This document shows, piece by piece, positions 3,021 through 10,496 of a DNA stretch of 32,000 bases (its first letter is position 1; the number at the start of each line of letters is the position of its first letter). The stretch lies in contig SUPR01000025.1 in NCBI GenBank assembly GCA_005191425.1, positions 1 to 32,000 of the forward strand. Direction: 5' to 3'. The position numbers were made by a program, and so were the translations under genes. The notes beneath the pieces are model-generated. The model was not told the origin of the DNA. It was given only the letters and a program-made list of their open reading frames with translations, and searched no databases. Origin of the DNA: Candidatus Helarchaeota ASGARD archaeon Hel_GB_B. GTDB lineage: Archaea > Asgardarchaeota > Lokiarchaeia > Helarchaeales > HEL-GB-B.

Positions 3021-4667
3021 ATGACTGTGAAAAAAATGATTACCAAATTAGTGTTACCAAAACTTGGATGGACAATGGAAGAAGGCAAAATAATAAAATG
3101 GCTGAAACAAGAAGGTTCAGAGATAAAGAAACGAGAACCCATTTTAATGATTGAAACTGACAAAGTTTCCTTAGAAATTGAATCGCCAATTGATGGATTT
3201 TTGCGAAAAATTATAATTCAAGAAAATCAGACTGTACCTGTTGGAACTGTAATAGCTATATTATCTGATAATTTAGAAGAAAAAATACCTCAAGATATTG
3301 AAAGTCTAAAAGAAGTAATTGAAGTTTCAGTACCTAAAAAGGAGGAAACCCTTGAAACTATACCTGATCAAGAATTACAGACCCAAAATCAAATCGTCAA
3401 TAGAATTATTGCGTCACCAAGGGCTAAAAAATTGGCGAGAGAACATAATATAAATTTAGCATTATTAAAAGGTACTGGCCCAAATGGTAGAATTATTGAG
3501 AGAGATGTTATTAATTTCTTAAATCAAGAAATTTCTCCGCAAATTAAAAGTAAAACAATTCCTCTTGAAGGGATTAGAAAAATAATTGCAAAAAAGATGC
3601 ATTATAGTCTTAATGAAATTCCACAACTTACATATACTTCTGAAATAGATATGTCTGAAGCTATCAAAATCAGAAAATATCTTATTGATTTATATTCAAG
3701 TGAAAATGTCAAGATCACTTTAACTGATATTATTATTAAAGCAGTAATTGAAGCAATAAAAAAATATCCTATTTTTAATTCAGTTTTAGATGAAAATAAA
3801 ATTGTAATAAAAGATGTAATAAACTTAGGAGTTGCAGTTTCTACTGATAGGGGTCTCATAGTCCCTGTTATTCATAATGCCAGTTCAAAATCAATAAAAG
3901 AAATATCAATGTCAGTAAGAGTATTAGCCAATAAAGCTAGAAATAATACCTTAAATTTAGATGATGTTTCTGGCGGAACATTTACAATTTCAAATCTAGG
4001 AATGTTTGGAATAGAAATATTTACTCCTATTATTAATCCTCCCGAATCCGCAATTTTAGGAGTAGGTAAAATTATTGACAAACCAATAATAAAAGAAGGA
4101 CGGTTAAAAATTTGTCCAATGATGGTGCTTAGTTTAACACATGACCATAGAATTATGGACGGGGTTGATGCTGCTAAATTTTTACAAGAAATTAAAATGC
4201 TTTTAGAGGACCCATATTCCTTATTTAAACTTGAAAAACCAAAAAGTGCCCAAAAGGAAAAAATAATGGCAGAAACAAATAGTTTAAAAAGTCCTAAAGA
4301 AAAAGGAGCCTTAAAATTCGTTGAAATGCTAGAAAAAAGAGGTATGAATATTTTAGGGTATAAACCAAACCAAATGAACTTAATTGGGCAACATAATCCA
4401 CAATTAATTGCTAATTTTGCAAGGTTACATAGGGATGCAATGCAAGAAGGTGCTTTATCTACAAAAACTAAAGCATTAATTGCATTAGCAATAGCAGTAA
4501 TTGTCGGTTGTGAATCTTGTATGAAATGGCATCTAGTAGAAGCAATAGAAGCAGGGGCAACTAATGAGGAAATTTCAGAAACTCTTGGAGTCACAATTTA
4601 TATGGGCGGTGGGCCAGCGTTAATGCATGCCGAAACAATTGCTGATAAACTTGAAGAATTACGTTAA
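3021..4667 (+). CDS. 2-oxoacid/acetoin dehydrogenase E2 (dihydrolipoamide acyltransferase) fused to a C-terminal CMD/AhpD-like CxxC domain
   Basis: Lipoyl domain 'PKLGWTMEEG...ETDK48VSLEIESP', E3-binding domain 'ASPRAKKLARE...GTGPNGRI', catalytic 'TISNLG...PIINPP...DHRIMDG'. The frame continues with no stop into 'GALSTKTKALIALAIAVIVGC497ESC500MKWH...GAT.EEI.E...YMGGGP'. Confidence 0.9.
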   Translation: MTVKKMITKLVLPKLGWTMEEGKIIKWLKQEGSEIKKREPILMIETDKVSLEIESPIDGFLRKIIIQENQTVPVGTVIAILSDNLEEKIPQDIESLKEVIEVSVPKKEETLETIPDQELQTQNQIVNRIIASPRAKKLAREHNINLALLKGTGPNGRIIERDVINFLNQEISPQIKSKTIPLEGIRKIIAKKMHYSLNEIPQLTYTSEIDMSEAIKIRKYLIDLYSSENVKITLTDIIIKAVIEAIKKYPIFNSVLDENKIVIKDVINLGVAVSTDRGLIVPVIHNASSKSIKEISMSVRVLANKARNNTLNLDDVSGGTFTISNLGMFGIEIFTPIINPPESAILGVGKIIDKPIIKEGRLKICPMMVLSLTHDHRIMDGVDAAKFLQEIKMLLEDPYSLFKLEKPKSAQKEKIMAETNSLKSPKEKGALKFVEMLEKRGMNILGYKPNQMNLIGQHNPQLIANFARLHRDAMQEGALSTKTKALIALAIAVIVGCESCMKWHLVEAIEAGATNEEISETLGVTIYMGGGPALMHAETIADKLEELR

Positions 4668-4694
4668 AAAATAAATCTTTTATTGTGTAAAGTA

Positions 4695-5549
4695 ATGAAT
4701 AAAAAACCTGATTGGATTATCAGAAAAGCTCCACGACCTGAAATTTTATTGGAAATGAATAAATTATTTAGAAATTTAAAGATTCATACAATTTGTGAAA
4801 ATGCATTATGTCCGAATATTGGTATATGTTTTGAGAAAAAAGTTGCTACTTTTTTAATTTTAGGCAATATTTGTTCAAGGAATTGTAGATTTTGTGGAGT
4901 TCAAAAGGGAAGACCTACTCCTGTTGATAATAAAGAACCTGAACATGTTGCAGATGCTGTCCAAAAATTAAAGTTAAGACATGTAGTTATAACTTCAGTA
5001 ACTCGAGACGACCTGCCAGATTTTGGAGTTGACCAATTTATTAAAACAATAAATGCGATTCGTAATAATAACAGAAAAATAACAATTGAGGTACTAATCC
5101 CGGATTTTCAAGGATCTGAATTTTGTCTGGATAAAATTATTAAAATTAGACCTGAAATAATTGGTCATAATATTGAAACTATCCCTAAATTATATCATAA
5201 AATCAGACCAAAAGCCGATTTTTACCGCTCAATTGGGATTCTCCAGTACCTGAATGATAATAGAATTAATTATCTTATTAAATCTGGTCTAATGATTGGA
5301 CTTGGCGAAACTAAAGAAGAGATCTTCCAAACTATGGAGATTATTTCAAAAACTGGGTGTGATATTTTAACTATAGGACAATATTTACAACCTTCAAAAA
5401 AGCAAGTAGAAGTAGAAAAATATTATGAACCCAAATTTTTTGATGAATTAAAAGATCATGGAACTTCAATTGGATTTAAATATGTCTATTCAGGTCCTTT
5501 TGTCAGAAGCTCTTTTAATGCAGACGAAATTTTTAAAATTTTAAAGTAA
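4695..5549 (+). CDS. lipA: Lipoyl synthase (radical SAM)
   Basis: CX4CX5C 'CENALCPNIGIC', radical SAM CX3CX2C 'CSRNCRFC', 'TSVTRDDLPD', 'HNIET', 'GQYLQP', C-terminal 'VRSSF'. ATG at 4695 is preferred over TTG at 4683. Confidence 0.95.
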   Translation: MNKKPDWIIRKAPRPEILLEMNKLFRNLKIHTICENALCPNIGICFEKKVATFLILGNICSRNCRFCGVQKGRPTPVDNKEPEHVADAVQKLKLRHVVITSVTRDDLPDFGVDQFIKTINAIRNNNRKITIEVLIPDFQGSEFCLDKIIKIRPEIIGHNIETIPKLYHKIRPKADFYRSIGILQYLNDNRINYLIKSGLMIGLGETKEEIFQTMEIISKTGCDILTIGQYLQPSKKQVEVEKYYEPKFFDELKDHGTSIGFKYVYSGPFVRSSFNADEIFKILK

Positions 5550-5571: not shown

Positions 5572-6597
5572 TTAACAAACTCTAGGAATTGGCTCACCTC
5601 GTGGGGTTTCAATTATTCTTTTACCGCCAATCGAGGTATTTAGAATTACATAACCGGGCTTTTCTGCTTTAACTTCACCGATAATCTCTGCATTTTTTCC
5701 ATATTTAGTTTTTTTTATTAGCGATAAAGTTTCTTCTGCTAAATCTTTTTCTACTCCCATAACTACTTTACCTTCATTTGCGATGGCTAATGGATCAAAA
5801 CCTAGCATTTCACATGCAGCTATTACCGGCGCTTTAATCGGGACTTTGTCTTCATCAATCCAAATACTTACATTTGACTTCTGAGCAAATTCATTTAAAA
5901 GTCCAGCAACTCCTCCTCTTGTTGGGTCCTTCATGGCTTTTATACCACCCGGTTTCATAGCAGCTTCTATTGTTTCGTGTAAAGGGGCACAATCTGAAAC
6001 TAATTGTGTCTCAAAACCTAAACCTTCTCGCTTTGAAAGTAGCGCTATCCCATGATCTCCAATTGAACCATTAATTATTATCTTATTACCTGGTTTCAGG
6101 CCATTATCCGTAATAACTGAACCTTTTTTTACAATACCAACTCCTGTAGTTGAAATTATCATACCATCAAGTGTCCCATTGGGCATAACCTTCGTATCTC
6201 CTGCAATAAGCGCCACATTTGCCTCAACTAATATTTGGTTCATAGAATTTAATATCTTTTTAAAATTATTCATTAAAAAACCCTCTTCCATTATAATTGC
6301 CGATGTTATGGCGACTGGCTTGGCGCCCATCACTGCGACATCATTAATTGTCCCGCAAACCGCTAACTTTCCAAGATCTCCACCCGGAAAAAAAAGCGGC
6401 GTTATTGTATGTGCATCGGTTGAAACAACAACTTCATAATCCTGAACTGGAATTGTCGCCCCATCATCTAGAGCTTCAAGTCCAATACCACCTTTTACAA
6501 TTTTATTTTTAAAAGTGGGTACGATAATCTCATCCAATAATTGTTGCGTTAACTTTCCACCAGCTCCATGAGCCAACTCTATCTTATCAAATTCCAT
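5572..6597 (-). CDS. hypE: [NiFe]-hydrogenase maturation protein HypE (carbamoyl dehydratase)
   Basis: N-terminal 'LAHGAGG', 'GGDLGKLAVCGTINDVAV', 'GDTKV', 'KDPTRGG', 'ANEGK' and the diagnostic C-terminal 'PRVC'. Confidence 0.97.
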   Translation of the reverse strand: MEFDKIELAHGAGGKLTQQLLDEIIVPTFKNKIVKGGIGLEALDDGATIPVQDYEVVVSTDAHTITPLFFPGGDLGKLAVCGTINDVAVMGAKPVAITSAIIMEEGFLMNNFKKILNSMNQILVEANVALIAGDTKVMPNGTLDGMIISTTGVGIVKKGSVITDNGLKPGNKIIINGSIGDHGIALLSKREGLGFETQLVSDCAPLHETIEAAMKPGGIKAMKDPTRGGVAGLLNEFAQKSNVSIWIDEDKVPIKAPVIAACEMLGFDPLAIANEGKVVMGVEKDLAEETLSLIKKTKYGKNAEIIGEVKAEKPGYVILNTSIGGKRIIETPRGEPIPRVC

Positions 6598-8595: not shown

Positions 8596-8973
8596 TTATG
8601 TTTCGACCCTGATATTTTTAATATTTAATTCGTGTCCTCCTATTATTTCTAAATCTCTTTCTCCACATTTTGGACACTGCGATAGACTTAATTCCATCAT
8701 CAATGTATCTCCTGAAGATTCTAAATTTAATACGCCTTTATATTTACATTTAGGGCAGAAAACTTTTGCATTTACATGTGTAATTCTAATGTTTGCTCCC
8801 TCAGCGATTGTTCCCTTAGATGCAATATCAAACGAAAATTTAAGTTGTTCTGGTACCAAAAATGTCAAATCTCCAATTTCTAAGTGCACTTCTGTTATTT
8901 TTTTTGCACCATTTTGTAAGCCTACTCTAGTAATTGTCCTAACAATTTGTTGAGCTGTAGCAAATTCATGCAT
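8596..8973 (-). CDS. hypA: Hydrogenase nickel metallochaperone HypA
   Basis: N-terminal Ni-binding 'MHE', two CxxC (CPKC, CPKCG), 'IIGGHEL.I..I.VE'. Confidence 0.95.
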   Translation of the reverse strand: MHEFATAQQIVRTITRVGLQNGAKKITEVHLEIGDLTFLVPEQLKFSFDIASKGTIAEGANIRITHVNAKVFCPKCKYKGVLNLESSGDTLMMELSLSQCPKCGERDLEIIGGHELNIKNIRVET

Positions 8974-9630: not shown

Positions 9631-9921
9631 ATGGGTTCAGATATTTTAAAAAAAAGAAATTATTCCCGAAATGAACTATTTTTAATTAGAAAAGAAAAAT
9701 TAATATCTGCAATTATATCAGCAAAAAAAATACTAAAGGCTTCAGAACCACTTGAGATAGCAGATGAATTTTTTCATAATAGTTTTAAATTAATGGAGAA
9801 AATATATCACATTAAATATCCAAATATGAATCAAGAAGAAATCCAACAAATAATAAAGAATAATTTACAACTATCGTATAGACTTAAGCACTTAAGAAAA
9901 CGAGGGATAAATTCATGGTAG
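9631..9921 (+). CDS. Small helical hypothetical protein, putative antitoxin/partner of the downstream nucleotidyltransferase
   Basis: 96-aa ORF whose stop overlaps the next gene's ATG by 7 nt (ATGGTAG). Confidence 0.6.
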   Translation: MGSDILKKRNYSRNELFLIRKEKLISAIISAKKILKASEPLEIADEFFHNSFKLMEKIYHIKYPNMNQEEIQQIIKNNLQLSYRLKHLRKRGINSW

Positions 9922-10496
9922 AGTTAGAAAAAATTCTATCGCGTCTGGTTAAAATTTTCAATTCCATTAATATAAAATATGTTATTGTTGGGGGAATAGC
10001 AATTATTCATTATGGTCATTTAAGAACTACTCAAGATATAGATCTTATTCTTGAAGATAACAAAAAATATTTCCCAAAGCTATTAGGTCTTTTTAAAAAA
10101 AACAATTTTGATGTTAATGATGCTGATTTTTATCGAGCATATCAAGAAAAGACCCATATAACAATTTTTGATAATAAAAGCTATTATAGATTAGATATTA
10201 AAATTGCATCAAAAAATATAGATTATGACGTGTTAAATAATGCTATTAAAGAACAAATTTTTAATTTTAACTTAAATTTTGCTCCTTTAGAATATGTCTT
10301 AATAGGTAAATTATTATATATTGGGAATATTGATGATATTCCAGATTCTGAGCTTTTAGAATATCAAGATATCTTAGATTTTTTAGTATTATATCATGCA
10401 AATAGAAATAGAATTAATGATGATTTTTTAATGAAAAAAGTAGTAGAAATTAATTTAGGACCAACCTTAAAGAGACTAATTTCATTTAAATTCTGA
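9915..10496 (+). CDS. Pol-beta superfamily nucleotidyltransferase (DUF6036/AbiEii-MenT-like)
   Basis: 'YVIVGGIAIIHYGHLRTTQDIDLIL' matches the hGG-x(n)-RxTxDhD signature; 'YRLDIK'; SD-like 'gaggga' upstream. Confidence 0.8.
   Translation: MVELEKILSRLVKIFNSINIKYVIVGGIAIIHYGHLRTTQDIDLILEDNKKYFPKLLGLFKKNNFDVNDADFYRAYQEKTHITIFDNKSYYRLDIKIASKNIDYDVLNNAIKEQIFNFNLNFAPLEYVLIGKLLYIGNIDDIPDSELLEYQDILDFLVLYHANRNRINDDFLMKKVVEINLGPTLKRLISFKF

Follow-up and report, generated by a model that had tools for sequence, protein, structure and literature searches.

In Mycobacterium tuberculosis, electrons travel from E1, or from NADH via Lpd, to the lipoyl group of the E2 protein DlaT, then to AhpD and finally to the peroxiredoxin AhpC. 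AhpD of this species is a trimer of 177 aa chains, each with two CMD-like halves, and AhpD proteins carry the proton-relay signature E-x11-CxxC-x3-H. To our knowledge, electron traffic from a lipoyl arm to AhpD is known only for mycobacteria, where the partners are separate proteins. The E2 involved also serves a dehydrogenase complex, and the reduced lipoate on it (E2p, or DlaT), which powers AhpD, is fed either by E1 or by NADH and E3 (PMC12995895). Lipoyl groups, bound to protein, are also the biological reductants of the disulfide in Ohr/OsmC-family peroxidases (PMC5384416). OsmC is itself a peroxidase, whereas AhpD-type proteins usually relay electrons, and the two types are unrelated in fold and active site. 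Acetoin dehydrogenases (AcoA/AcoB/AcoC/AcoL, with AcoX and AcoR) and archaeal 2-oxoacid complexes combine a PDH/acetoin-type E1alpha/beta with Lpd and a single-lipoyl-domain E2; aco operons include the AcoX gene, which has an NAD-kinase fold.

The locus described here lies in a 32,000 nt stretch of contig SUPR01000025.1 of the uncultured Candidatus Helarchaeota archaeon Hel_GB_B (the window). As in the M. tuberculosis relay, a lipoylated E2, which here also appears to serve a dehydrogenase complex, is paired with a CMD-fold CxxC-x3-H protein, but the two are joined in one chain here, while in other Asgard archaea their genes can share an operon. A further difference from M. tuberculosis AhpD is that the CMD part is a single unit of about 120 aa, and the pairing is found in anaerobic archaea and sulfate-reducing Bacillota.

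The fusion gene and its surroundings

ORF calling and translation of the window gave a single ORF of 548 aa at 3021-4667 on the forward strand. Since homologues start at the second methionine (ATG 3036, MITKL...), the real product is probably 543 aa long. The features of the locus, with residues numbered on the 548 aa translation, are:

3021..4667, + strand: E2-CMD fusion gene (ORF, translation, four Pfam domains)
3048..3263, + strand: lipoyl domain, aa 10-81 (Pfam Biotin_lipoyl, E 1.4e-17)
3162-3164, + strand: lipoyl-lysine K48, within T46-D47-K48 (TDK motif)
3405..3509, + strand: peripheral-subunit (E3/E1) binding domain, aa 129-163 (Pfam E3_binding, E 8.9e-16)
3549..4226, + strand: E2 acyltransferase catalytic domain, aa 177-402 (Pfam 2-oxoacid_dh, E 8.8e-85)
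4227..4307, + strand: Lys-rich flexible linker, aa 403-429 (low AF2 pLDDT, low identity)
4308..4664, + strand: AhpD-type CMD tail, aa 430-548 (Pfam CMD, TIGR00778, 5dik_A)
4509-4532, + strand: C497-E-S-C500-x3-H504 of the CMD tail (translation)
4683..5549, + strand: lipA, lipoyl synthase (start TTG 4683 or ATG 4695)

The original prediction, made from the sequence and its translations, was of a complete E2 that continues past its usual end through a Lys-rich linker into a CMD domain, and the single ORF with four Pfam domains agrees with this. The usual end, LLEDPYSLF of the C-terminal helix, is at aa 394-402, and the linker beyond it has 7 Lys per 24 residues. All of the residues picked out in that prediction are present in the translation, including K48, C497, C500, H504 and the catalytic motif DHRxxDG (D375-H376-R377-x-x-D380-G381, aa 375-381). 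No NCBIfam equivalog scored above its cut-off for the E2 part, and the substrate class is thus not assigned. We regard an antisense ORF of 240 aa (3872-4594), which sits inside this conserved gene, as spurious.

The tail is equivalent to a whole free-standing CMD protein of about 120 aa. It matches Pfam CMD (PF02627) at aa 460-542 (E 7.6e-20; 71 bits, cut-off 23) and the NCBIfam AhpD core domain TIGR00778 (36.9-39.7 bits; cut-off 27.8). Its best solved relative is 5dik_A, a 121-aa chain deposited as AhpD, which aligns from end to end (E 8.9e-20) and shares the CxxC-x3-H and GGGP motifs. Other small AhpD-like CMD structures (7y4r, 1vke, 1p8c and 3bey) are of free-standing proteins with six chains per entry, while the tail is covalently tied to E2. 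An AF2 model of the full-length protein (mean pLDDT 72, pTM 0.47) had confident domains and disordered linkers, with pLDDT below 50 at aa 409-423; it gave no reliable placement of the domains relative to each other, and the position of the tail on the core was not read from it. When the lipoyl domain (aa 5-90) and the tail (aa 425-548) were modeled as a complex, the score was 0.00, which is neutral on binding.

The downstream gene is lipA (NCBIfam lipoyl synthase, 377 bits; TIGR00510, 336 bits, over its cut-off), and the spacing of 27 nt first given for it holds for the ATG at 4695, counted from the stop of the fusion gene. Among relatives, lipA is directly downstream of the fusion gene at two loci (L011, L015), adjacent but divergent at another (L014), and one gene away at a fourth (L009). 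A search of the window found no E1 or E3 gene in it, as had been noted from the sequence.

Conservation and genomic partners

The fusion occurs as one frame in about 17 Helarchaeota-type protein clusters from independent assemblies, with 60-99% identity, and in four of the seven genomes of the order (Helarchaeales), three of which, besides the source genome, code for proteins of 547, 550 and 563 aa. Across the 17 fused proteins, the lipoyl-lysine K48 and the C497, C500 and H504 residues of the tail are invariant, as are S132, P133, R134, A135, G151, G153 and R157 of the E3-binding domain, D375, H376, R377, D380 and G381 of the catalytic domain, and E520 and G529-531 of the tail. Conservation was measured as per-domain identity in place of dN/dS, because the identity of sequence pairs is either near 99% or no higher than 71%, which leaves synonymous sites uninformative or saturated. 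Identity is 0.75 in both the catalytic domain and the CMD tail, while the linkers drift (0.28-0.30), the Lys-rich linker having 0.28 over aa 406-429. Both halves of the fusion look functional on these grounds.

That two adjacent genes were joined by an assembly error, or by loss of a stop in one strain, can be put aside. The frame is unbroken in the 17 clusters and in three other genomes of the order, with no stop between the domains, the tail is constrained as strongly as the catalytic domain, and no point in favor of an artefact was found. A TAA flagged in one genome (G294) lies 5' of the ATG of the gene and not between the domains.

The fusion protein is the sole 2-oxoacid_dh protein and the sole CMD protein of the source genome, which is 93.7% complete. 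The same genome carries E1alpha/beta of the PDH/acetoin type on contig C9, adjoining two Zn-dependent alcohol dehydrogenases, a true Lpd on contig C3 (TIGR01350, 476 bits; cut-off 408.8), and LplA on contig C83. No GCV_T was found in the genome, and Lpd therefore has few other clients. Six of the seven genomes of the order have both E1 and E2, and the seventh lacks both. Since it is the only E2, with E1alpha/beta and Lpd on other contigs and with E1 and E2 co-occurring in the order, the fusion protein appears to be foremost a dehydrogenase core to which a redox tail has been added. That no E1 or E3 gene adjoins it does not point to an orphan scaffold, as the partners sit elsewhere in the genome. 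The wider suggestion, that the protein is not only a dehydrogenase core, is supported in part only: its catalytic residues are invariant, and E1alpha/beta, Lpd, LplA and LipA are encoded in the genome of this sole E2.

Recurrent fusions and operon linkage

The same E2-CMD architecture was found in the sulfate-reducing Bacillota Desulfofundulus thermosubterraneus and Desulfosporosinus sp. OT. In a tree of the E2 part, the Helarchaeota-type proteins form one group (SH-aLRT 87), while those of Desulfofundulus, Desulfosporosinus and Bacillota MAGs, with their own CMD tail, form a distant clade (support 100). The Helarchaeota-type and Bacillota tails are 36% identical and fall in separate clades, and the fusion has evidently arisen at least twice, independently in archaea and Bacillota. 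The bacterial genes lie in operons that resemble aco operons, with a sigma-54 activator and an NAD-kinase-fold gene but without E3; next comes a long ORF with a match to LipA and, at one locus (L027), LplA too.

In the nearest E2 relatives of the Helarchaeota-type proteins, the C-terminal place of the CMD tail is taken by E3 or OsmC. Asgard E2-E3 fusions (about 870 aa) share a clade with them (support 95), are the closest in the E2 part, with up to 56% identity, and have the same attachment point, but where the Helarchaeota-type proteins have a CxxC CMD domain, these end in a dihydrolipoyl dehydrogenase flavoprotein; E3 is the classical partner of the lipoyl arm. A Lokiarchaeota E2-E3 fusion is likewise followed by lipA. 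E2-OsmC fusions are sister (support 93) to the clade of both types. A tail-only search of 301-959-aa proteins and 1.84 billion representatives revealed no further kinds of fusion partner, matching only free-standing CMD proteins and tandem CMD repeats. In a CMD-domain tree (117 columns), the Helarchaeota tail is weakly grouped (60) with a peroxiredoxin-linked clade, and its origin, including one from the LplA-linked operon clade, was not resolved by this tree.

Free-standing relatives of the tail were sampled in 58 neighborhoods across the Asgard phylum, in one of which (L123) gene identities were checked with Pfam. LplA is directly upstream of the CMD gene, on the same strand, in 40 of these, and a Zn-dependent alcohol dehydrogenase adjoins it in 37. 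E2 lies within 5 kb in 27/58 and E1alpha/beta is present in 17-19/58, with gene clusters reading E1a-E1b-E2-LplA-CMD, whereas no Lpd was found in any of the 58. Zn-dependent alcohol dehydrogenases thus adjoin E1alpha/beta or CMD clusters, which can be compared with acetoin systems, but the clusters lack E3 and have a CMD domain or gene. The full signature E-x11-CxxC-x3-H is present in 56/58 of the free-standing proteins, mostly with CESC, as in the protein of the window. Peroxiredoxin genes occur near only two of the 58. At one locus (L122), the CMD gene is followed by a Fur/PerR-type regulator and then a divergent peroxiredoxin, and a peroxide context appears to exist for this one related CMD clade.

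We found no description of an E2-CMD fusion in literature of limited coverage, in line with the initial impression that none had been described, and one may still exist. The idea of a Rosetta-stone link between the E2 lipoyl arm and an AhpD-type protein gains from the two or more origins, the sibling E3 and OsmC fusions, and the operon-linked free CMD proteins.

Proposed electron flow through the tail

Domain make-up, conservation of the catalytic residues, genomic partners, and the recurrence of the fusion and of the operon linkage are observed directly. Our preferred reading, to which we give a probability of roughly 60%, is that the archaeon has a single lipoate-dependent dehydrogenase complex, of the 2-oxoacid or acetoin type, whose acyltransferase core is this protein, and that the AhpD-type tail draws electrons from the lipoyl arm. 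From the E2 domains, the protein is predicted to transfer acyl groups to CoA and to form a multimeric core. The tail would be a small AhpD-type thiol-disulfide oxidoreductase, tethered to the C-terminus of E2 by a flexible linker of about 25 residues. The arm on K48 would receive its electrons when E1 drives oxidative decarboxylation and the acyl group then passes to CoA, or alternatively from NADH through Lpd, and would then swing to the tail and reduce the C497/C500 disulfide by dithiol-disulfide exchange, assisted by H504. From the reduced tail, the electrons would go to an acceptor that removes peroxide or bears a disulfide, a peroxiredoxin or a hydroperoxide itself being the likeliest, which would give the complex a built-in outlet for lipoyl-derived reducing power.

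We infer the transfer between arm and CxxC, its direction and its final acceptor; by analogy with AhpD in M. tuberculosis, the tail most likely receives electrons from the dihydrolipoyl arm. Reduction of the tail by the dihydrolipoyl group of E2 is supported indirectly, as the tie between the two would follow from the recurrence of the fusion, from E3 and OsmC at the same position, and from the presence of CMD genes in E2/LplA operons. The AhpC end of the relay, which was part of the original prediction, is weak: unlike in M. tuberculosis, no AhpC-TSA gene was found in the window or elsewhere in the source genome, and peroxiredoxins are rare near the free-standing relatives. The six other genomes of the order, including that of the same-genus G303 (whose peroxiredoxin has 218 aa), do have AhpC-TSA, though unlinked. 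A further proposal, that of an Fe-S reductase, drew no support. Where AhpD has a Glu, 12 residues ahead of the first Cys, the protein of the window has Ala485, and across the 17 fused proteins this position is Ala in nine, Glu in seven and Gly in one. In hosts that are strict anaerobes, there is no clear call for a catabolic complex to have a peroxide outlet, and the closest linkage of the free-standing relatives, that with LplA, could count against a relay and indicate cofactor handling instead.

Several other roles can be weighed against the same observations. The chemistry would be that of the relay, but with a catabolic rather than protective purpose, if the tail re-oxidized the dihydrolipoyl arm instead of, or alongside, Lpd. 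The position of the tail fits, being the one that E3 occupies in the closest E2 relatives, and so do the Asgard and bacterial operons without E3; of 41 genomes sampled from the Asgard family whose operon is unfused, only three score above the TIGR01350 cut-off. That electrons pass in this way to a non-NAD disulfide acceptor, the complex turning over without NADH production, is nonetheless improbable. The source genome has a true Lpd that, with no GCV_T found, most likely serves the fused E2, a true Lpd is likewise present in all five bacterial genomes that carry E2-CMD, and 29/41 of the unfused-operon genomes keep an Lpd-like flavoprotein of 266-507 bits. No operon examined has a conserved gene for an acceptor able to re-oxidize the tail at catabolic rates. 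We are equally skeptical of the general form of this idea, with the CxxC CMD unit of anaerobes as the physiological oxidant of the arm in place of E3. If it were true, E1-E2-CMD complexes of the Asgard and Desulfotomaculia type would oxidize substrate without NAD and their electrons would enter a disulfide relay, a new operating mode for lipoate-dependent dehydrogenase complexes.

It is slightly more doubtful that the CxxC tail maintains the cofactor, keeping the arm usable without exporting electrons, whether by setting its redox state after assembly by LipA or LplA or by clearing mixed disulfides and thiol damage. The upstream LplA gene, the tightest linkage of the free-standing relatives, would suit such a role, as would lipA beside the fusion gene in the window and in relatives, and the LipA-like ORF, with LplA at one locus, after the bacterial fusions. 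Many loci cluster LplA and LipA with E2, however, so the linkage need not mean cofactor assembly, and the sibling partners E3 and OsmC are electron-transfer partners rather than assembly factors; no AhpD-type protein is known to us to act in lipoate assembly. A tail with no redox role, acting as a carboxymuconolactone-decarboxylase-like enzyme or as a structural cap that alters assembly of E2 trimers, is highly improbable. Solved small CMD proteins are deposited with 3-9 chains per entry (six in the closest), and several free-standing ones are hexamers. The C-terminal helix of E2 normally makes the contact between trimers (PMC12995895), and the extension starts right after it, so the core could change. 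Yet the CxxC and His are invariant in 17/17 fused proteins, which a purely structural role leaves unexplained, and the PcaC model TIGR02425 scores 23-26 bits, far from its cut-off of 155.7.

Under the preferred reading, of a dehydrogenase core whose tail takes electrons off the lipoyl arm, the E2-CMD fusion would be a variant of a relay already known, and the fusions and operon linkage in other anaerobes point to an unstudied route by which electrons leave this arm. The pairing of E2 with CMD is hard-wired, as a fusion in two unrelated anaerobic lineages and as an operon in many Asgard archaea, with E2-E3 and E2-OsmC fusions as its siblings, which suggests that the E2 lipoyl arm may be a widespread electron hub for small thiol-redox proteins, beyond its swinging between E1, E2 and E3. 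Many uncharacterized AhpD-like CxxC proteins of anaerobes are now given a candidate partner, and cultured hosts carry the fusion (Desulfofundulus thermosubterraneus DSM 16057 and Desulfosporosinus sp. OT). Structurally, the fusion is also a puzzle, because the added part starts at the helix through which a 24- or 60-mer core is normally built. It is relevant, too, to the way in which Asgard archaea, as relatives of the lineage of the eukaryotic host, may run and protect a lipoate-dependent complex in the absence of oxygen.

The E2-CMD gene and its surroundings

Translation of the window gives a single 548-aa ORF at 3021-4667 (+), the product of which may be 543 aa, since homologues begin at the second Met. 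By Pfam, its domain order is the usual E2 series plus one extra C-terminal domain, as follows.

Domains of E2-CMD and the adjacent downstream gene
aa 10-81, + strand: Biotin_lipoyl (Pfam)
aa 129-163, + strand: E3_binding (Pfam)
aa 177-402, + strand: 2-oxoacid_dh (Pfam, E 8.8e-85)
aa 460-542, + strand: CMD (Pfam, E 7.6e-20)
ATG at 4695, + strand: lipA, lipoyl synthase, downstream of E2-CMD (NCBIfam, 377 bits)

All residues named in the original prediction were found, namely K48, DHRIMDG (375-381), the E2 end LLEDPYSLF, the Lys-rich linker, C497-E-S-C500 and H504, and lipA does lie 3' of the gene, with 27 nt between the E2 stop and its ATG. The tail (aa 430-548) matches TIGR00778, the AhpD core domain, above cut-off, and scores just 23-26 bits against the NCBIfam model of the true decarboxylase PcaC (cut-off 155.7). 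Among solved structures the tail is closest to 5dik, a deposition named AhpD (E 8.9e-20, whole tail aligned), and the next are small CMD proteins including 7y4r, 1vke, 1p8c and 3bey, each deposited with six chains. Judged by sequence, E2-CMD is a member of both the E2 family and the CMD/AhpD-core family. The closest named relatives are from Helarchaeota MAGs, and databases give such proteins no more specific name than '2-oxo acid dehydrogenase subunit E2'. Two proteins with six tandem CMD/AhpD-like repeats, P0123 (1161 aa) and P0124 (852 aa), also rank with the tail's best matches.

The remaining genes of the window are archaeal housekeeping genes (TFIIB, SRP19, HypA). Downstream of lipA are an AIR-synthase-fold gene (5572-6597, -; AIRS/AIRS_C; HypE, SelD or ThiL type) and hypA (8596-8973, -), in the same order as in the related contig L011. 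An antisense ORF of 240 aa (3872-4594, -) lies entirely within the conserved E2 gene and is most likely spurious. At 9631-10496, an ORF of 96 aa overlaps the gene of a nucleotidyltransferase of 193 aa (DUF6036/AbiEii), and the two have the appearance of a toxin-antitoxin pair.

Conservation and relatives of the fusion

The fusion is real. The four-plus-one architecture recurs in about 17 protein clusters at 60-99% identity, and the unbroken frames in independent assemblies exclude an artefact. Four of the seven species genomes of the order carry it as one frame of 547-563 aa; of the other three, one has E2 fused to E3 (877-aa frame), another an E2 with no fusion partner (416 aa), and the third no E2. 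A stop flagged in one genome of the order (G294) precedes the start codon and does not separate the E2 and CMD domains. Among the Helarchaeota-type proteins, identity is 0.75 in the CMD domain and 0.70 in the preceding helix, a level of conservation equal to that of the catalytic domain (0.75), with both linkers diverging to 0.28-0.30. Without exception, the 17 aligned fused proteins keep K48, D375, H376, R377, D380, G381, C497, C500, H504, E520 and G529-531.

In a tree of the E2 part, the Helarchaeota-type proteins fall within a clade (support 95) that includes Asgard E2-E3 fusions of about 870 aa, and E2-OsmC fusions of about 529 aa make up its sister clade (93). Textbooks name E3 as the partner of the lipoyl arm. 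The biological reductants of the Ohr/OsmC-family peroxidases are protein-bound lipoyl groups (PMC5384416). Since the siblings carry E3 and OsmC, the E2 C-terminus has repeatedly gained lipoate electron-exchange proteins in this clade.

The single-chain E2-E3 proteins of L020:6992-9613 (Lokiarchaeota MAG GCA_011365055.1) and L017 (genome G301), about 870 aa, comprise lipoyl, PSBD and catalytic domains and a full dihydrolipoyl dehydrogenase, an architecture of which we know of no description. They are flanked by LplA and LipA, beside a DGC-domain gene cluster, a DGC-GcvH fusion, ferredoxin and DUF166. The E2-OsmC fusions form seven clusters in their one clade; that of a JGI metagenome contig (L019:6998-8653, 551 aa) is encoded in one operon together with E1alpha and E1beta, an FMN-reductase/flavodoxin_2 protein and a flavodoxin of small size, with no adjacent E3.

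A second E2-CMD group (527-529 aa, 36-38% identical) is found in Desulfofundulus thermosubterraneus DSM 16057, Desulfosporosinus sp. OT and Bacillota MAGs. On the E2-part tree it forms its own clade (100), far from the Helarchaeota-type clade (87), and the tails, 36% identical, also fall into separate clades on the CMD tree; by phylogeny, this is an independent fusion. Each of the five bacterial genomes examined likewise has no E2 but the fusion, and encodes a true Lpd elsewhere. The operon order is sigma-54 activator, E1alpha, E1beta, NAD-kinase-fold gene (a type that acetoin (aco) operons also carry) and E2-CMD. LplA and LipA are represented either by separate genes before E2-CMD (L010) or by one long LipA-matching ORF after it, and GcvH-like genes then follow.

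LipA-matching ORFs (514-584 aa) downstream of bacterial E2-CMD
L029:10431-12182
L030:10597-12180
L031:10587-12146
L032:10609-12150

In another bacterial locus, L027, a frame of 859 aa from stop to stop has matches to LipA and to LplA, and the long ORF resembles a bifunctional LplA-LipA fusion that is already known (NCBIfam NF053790).

Within the phylum, the fused form occurs in only 2 of 301 sampled genomes, and a free-standing tail relative (100-180 aa, 29-46% identity) in 178. Fifty-eight neighbourhoods of such free-standing CMD genes were fetched and searched with the proteins of Hel_GB_B. In 40, the gene immediately upstream, in the same orientation, is LplA, and these 40 CMDs form one clade (98) on the CMD tree; 37 have a neighbouring Zn-dependent alcohol dehydrogenase, 27 an E2 within 5 kb, and 17-19 E1alpha or E1beta. 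Peroxiredoxin was found in two, a GcvH-DGC fusion in one and Lpd in none of the 58. Locus L123, for example, reads by Pfam E1alpha, E1beta, E2, small zinc ribbon, LplA, CMD and a divergent Zn-ADH. The full E-x11-CxxC-x3-H signature is present in 56/58, mostly as CESC, like the window protein. In one related CMD clade (L122), CMD and Fur/PerR-type regulator genes are divergent from peroxiredoxin, a peroxide context.

A dehydrogenase core with dispersed partners

No E1 or E3 gene neighbours E2-CMD, yet it is not an orphan scaffold. The only 2-oxoacid_dh and the only CMD domain of the 3.54-Mb genome (93.7% complete) are those of E2-CMD, E1alpha and E1beta are on contig C9 next to two genes for Zn-dependent alcohol dehydrogenases, and a flavoprotein on contig C3 passes the dihydrolipoyl dehydrogenase equivalog model (476 bits, cut-off 408.8). 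That the window has neither E1 nor E3 is thus a matter of gene dispersal, and E2-CMD is still a dehydrogenase core. E1 is present in exactly the six E2-bearing genomes of the order (n = 7). An LplA gene is on contig C83. GCV_T was not found in the genome despite two GcvH-like lipoyl carriers (C113:21824-22213 and C107:14312-14671), so Lpd most likely serves E2-CMD; glycine cleavage may not be what the carriers serve, and in this they would resemble the DGC-GcvH clusters found elsewhere among Asgard archaea (L108, L020). Directly after E1beta, near the contig end, is a TnpB/IS605 OrfB-like transposase gene (L006:9963-10640, -, on C9), which may account for the separation of E2-CMD/lipA from the E1 genes.

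A proposed lipoate-to-CMD relay and its alternatives

In Mycobacterium tuberculosis, lipoate on the E2 protein DlaT can receive its electrons either through E1 or from NADH via E3, and powers AhpD, which reduces AhpC (PMC12995895). By analogy, E2-CMD most plausibly works like this system: E1-driven catalysis, or NADH via Lpd, would reduce the lipoyl arm, which in turn would reduce the C497/C500 disulfide of the tethered tail, and the tail would hand the electrons onward. The proposed arm-to-tail step is well supported by comparative evidence. E2-CMD is not strictly of the M. tuberculosis AhpD type, however, as its tail has only one CMD unit, Ala stands in place of the relay Glu, and no ahpC is linked.

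Peroxiredoxin, or hydroperoxide directly, is the first-choice candidate acceptor, favoured by the M. tuberculosis system, by the sibling fusion to OsmC and by the CMD clade linked to PerR and Prx. The choice is weakened by the Ala at the relay position, the strictly anaerobic hosts and the rarity of peroxiredoxin near CMD. It is weakened too by the search of the Hel_GB_B genome, where no AhpC-TSA gene was seen; the other six genomes of the order have one. Some AhpC-TSA matches of the order contain one or two in-frame TGA codons (G294:C126:5612-5968, G301:C52:6017-6391, G304:C5:351995-352372 and G294:C196:9236-9616) and may be selenocysteine peroxiredoxins.

Alternatively, the CMD could re-oxidise the lipoyl arm in place of, or parallel to, Lpd. 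It holds the operon slot of E3, and among 41 sampled genomes of the Asgard family with the unfused operon, the Lpd equivalog passed in only three; however, 29 of the 41 still have an Lpd-like flavoprotein, a true Lpd is present in Hel_GB_B and all five bacterial E2-CMD genomes, and the operons have no conserved acceptor gene, making such a bypass improbable. Slightly less probable still is maintenance of the lipoyl cofactor by the tail. The tight LplA linkage would suit this reading, but it has no known precedent in biochemistry and accords less well with the sibling fusions to E3 and OsmC. A non-redox or structural role would leave the invariant CxxC-H unexplained and is very unlikely.

The literature search, like the original prediction, turned up no described E2-CMD fusion. 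From the sequence comparisons, E2-CMD would be a variant of the known lipoate-AhpD relay with unusually strong comparative support, and it is testable, as cultured hosts exist.
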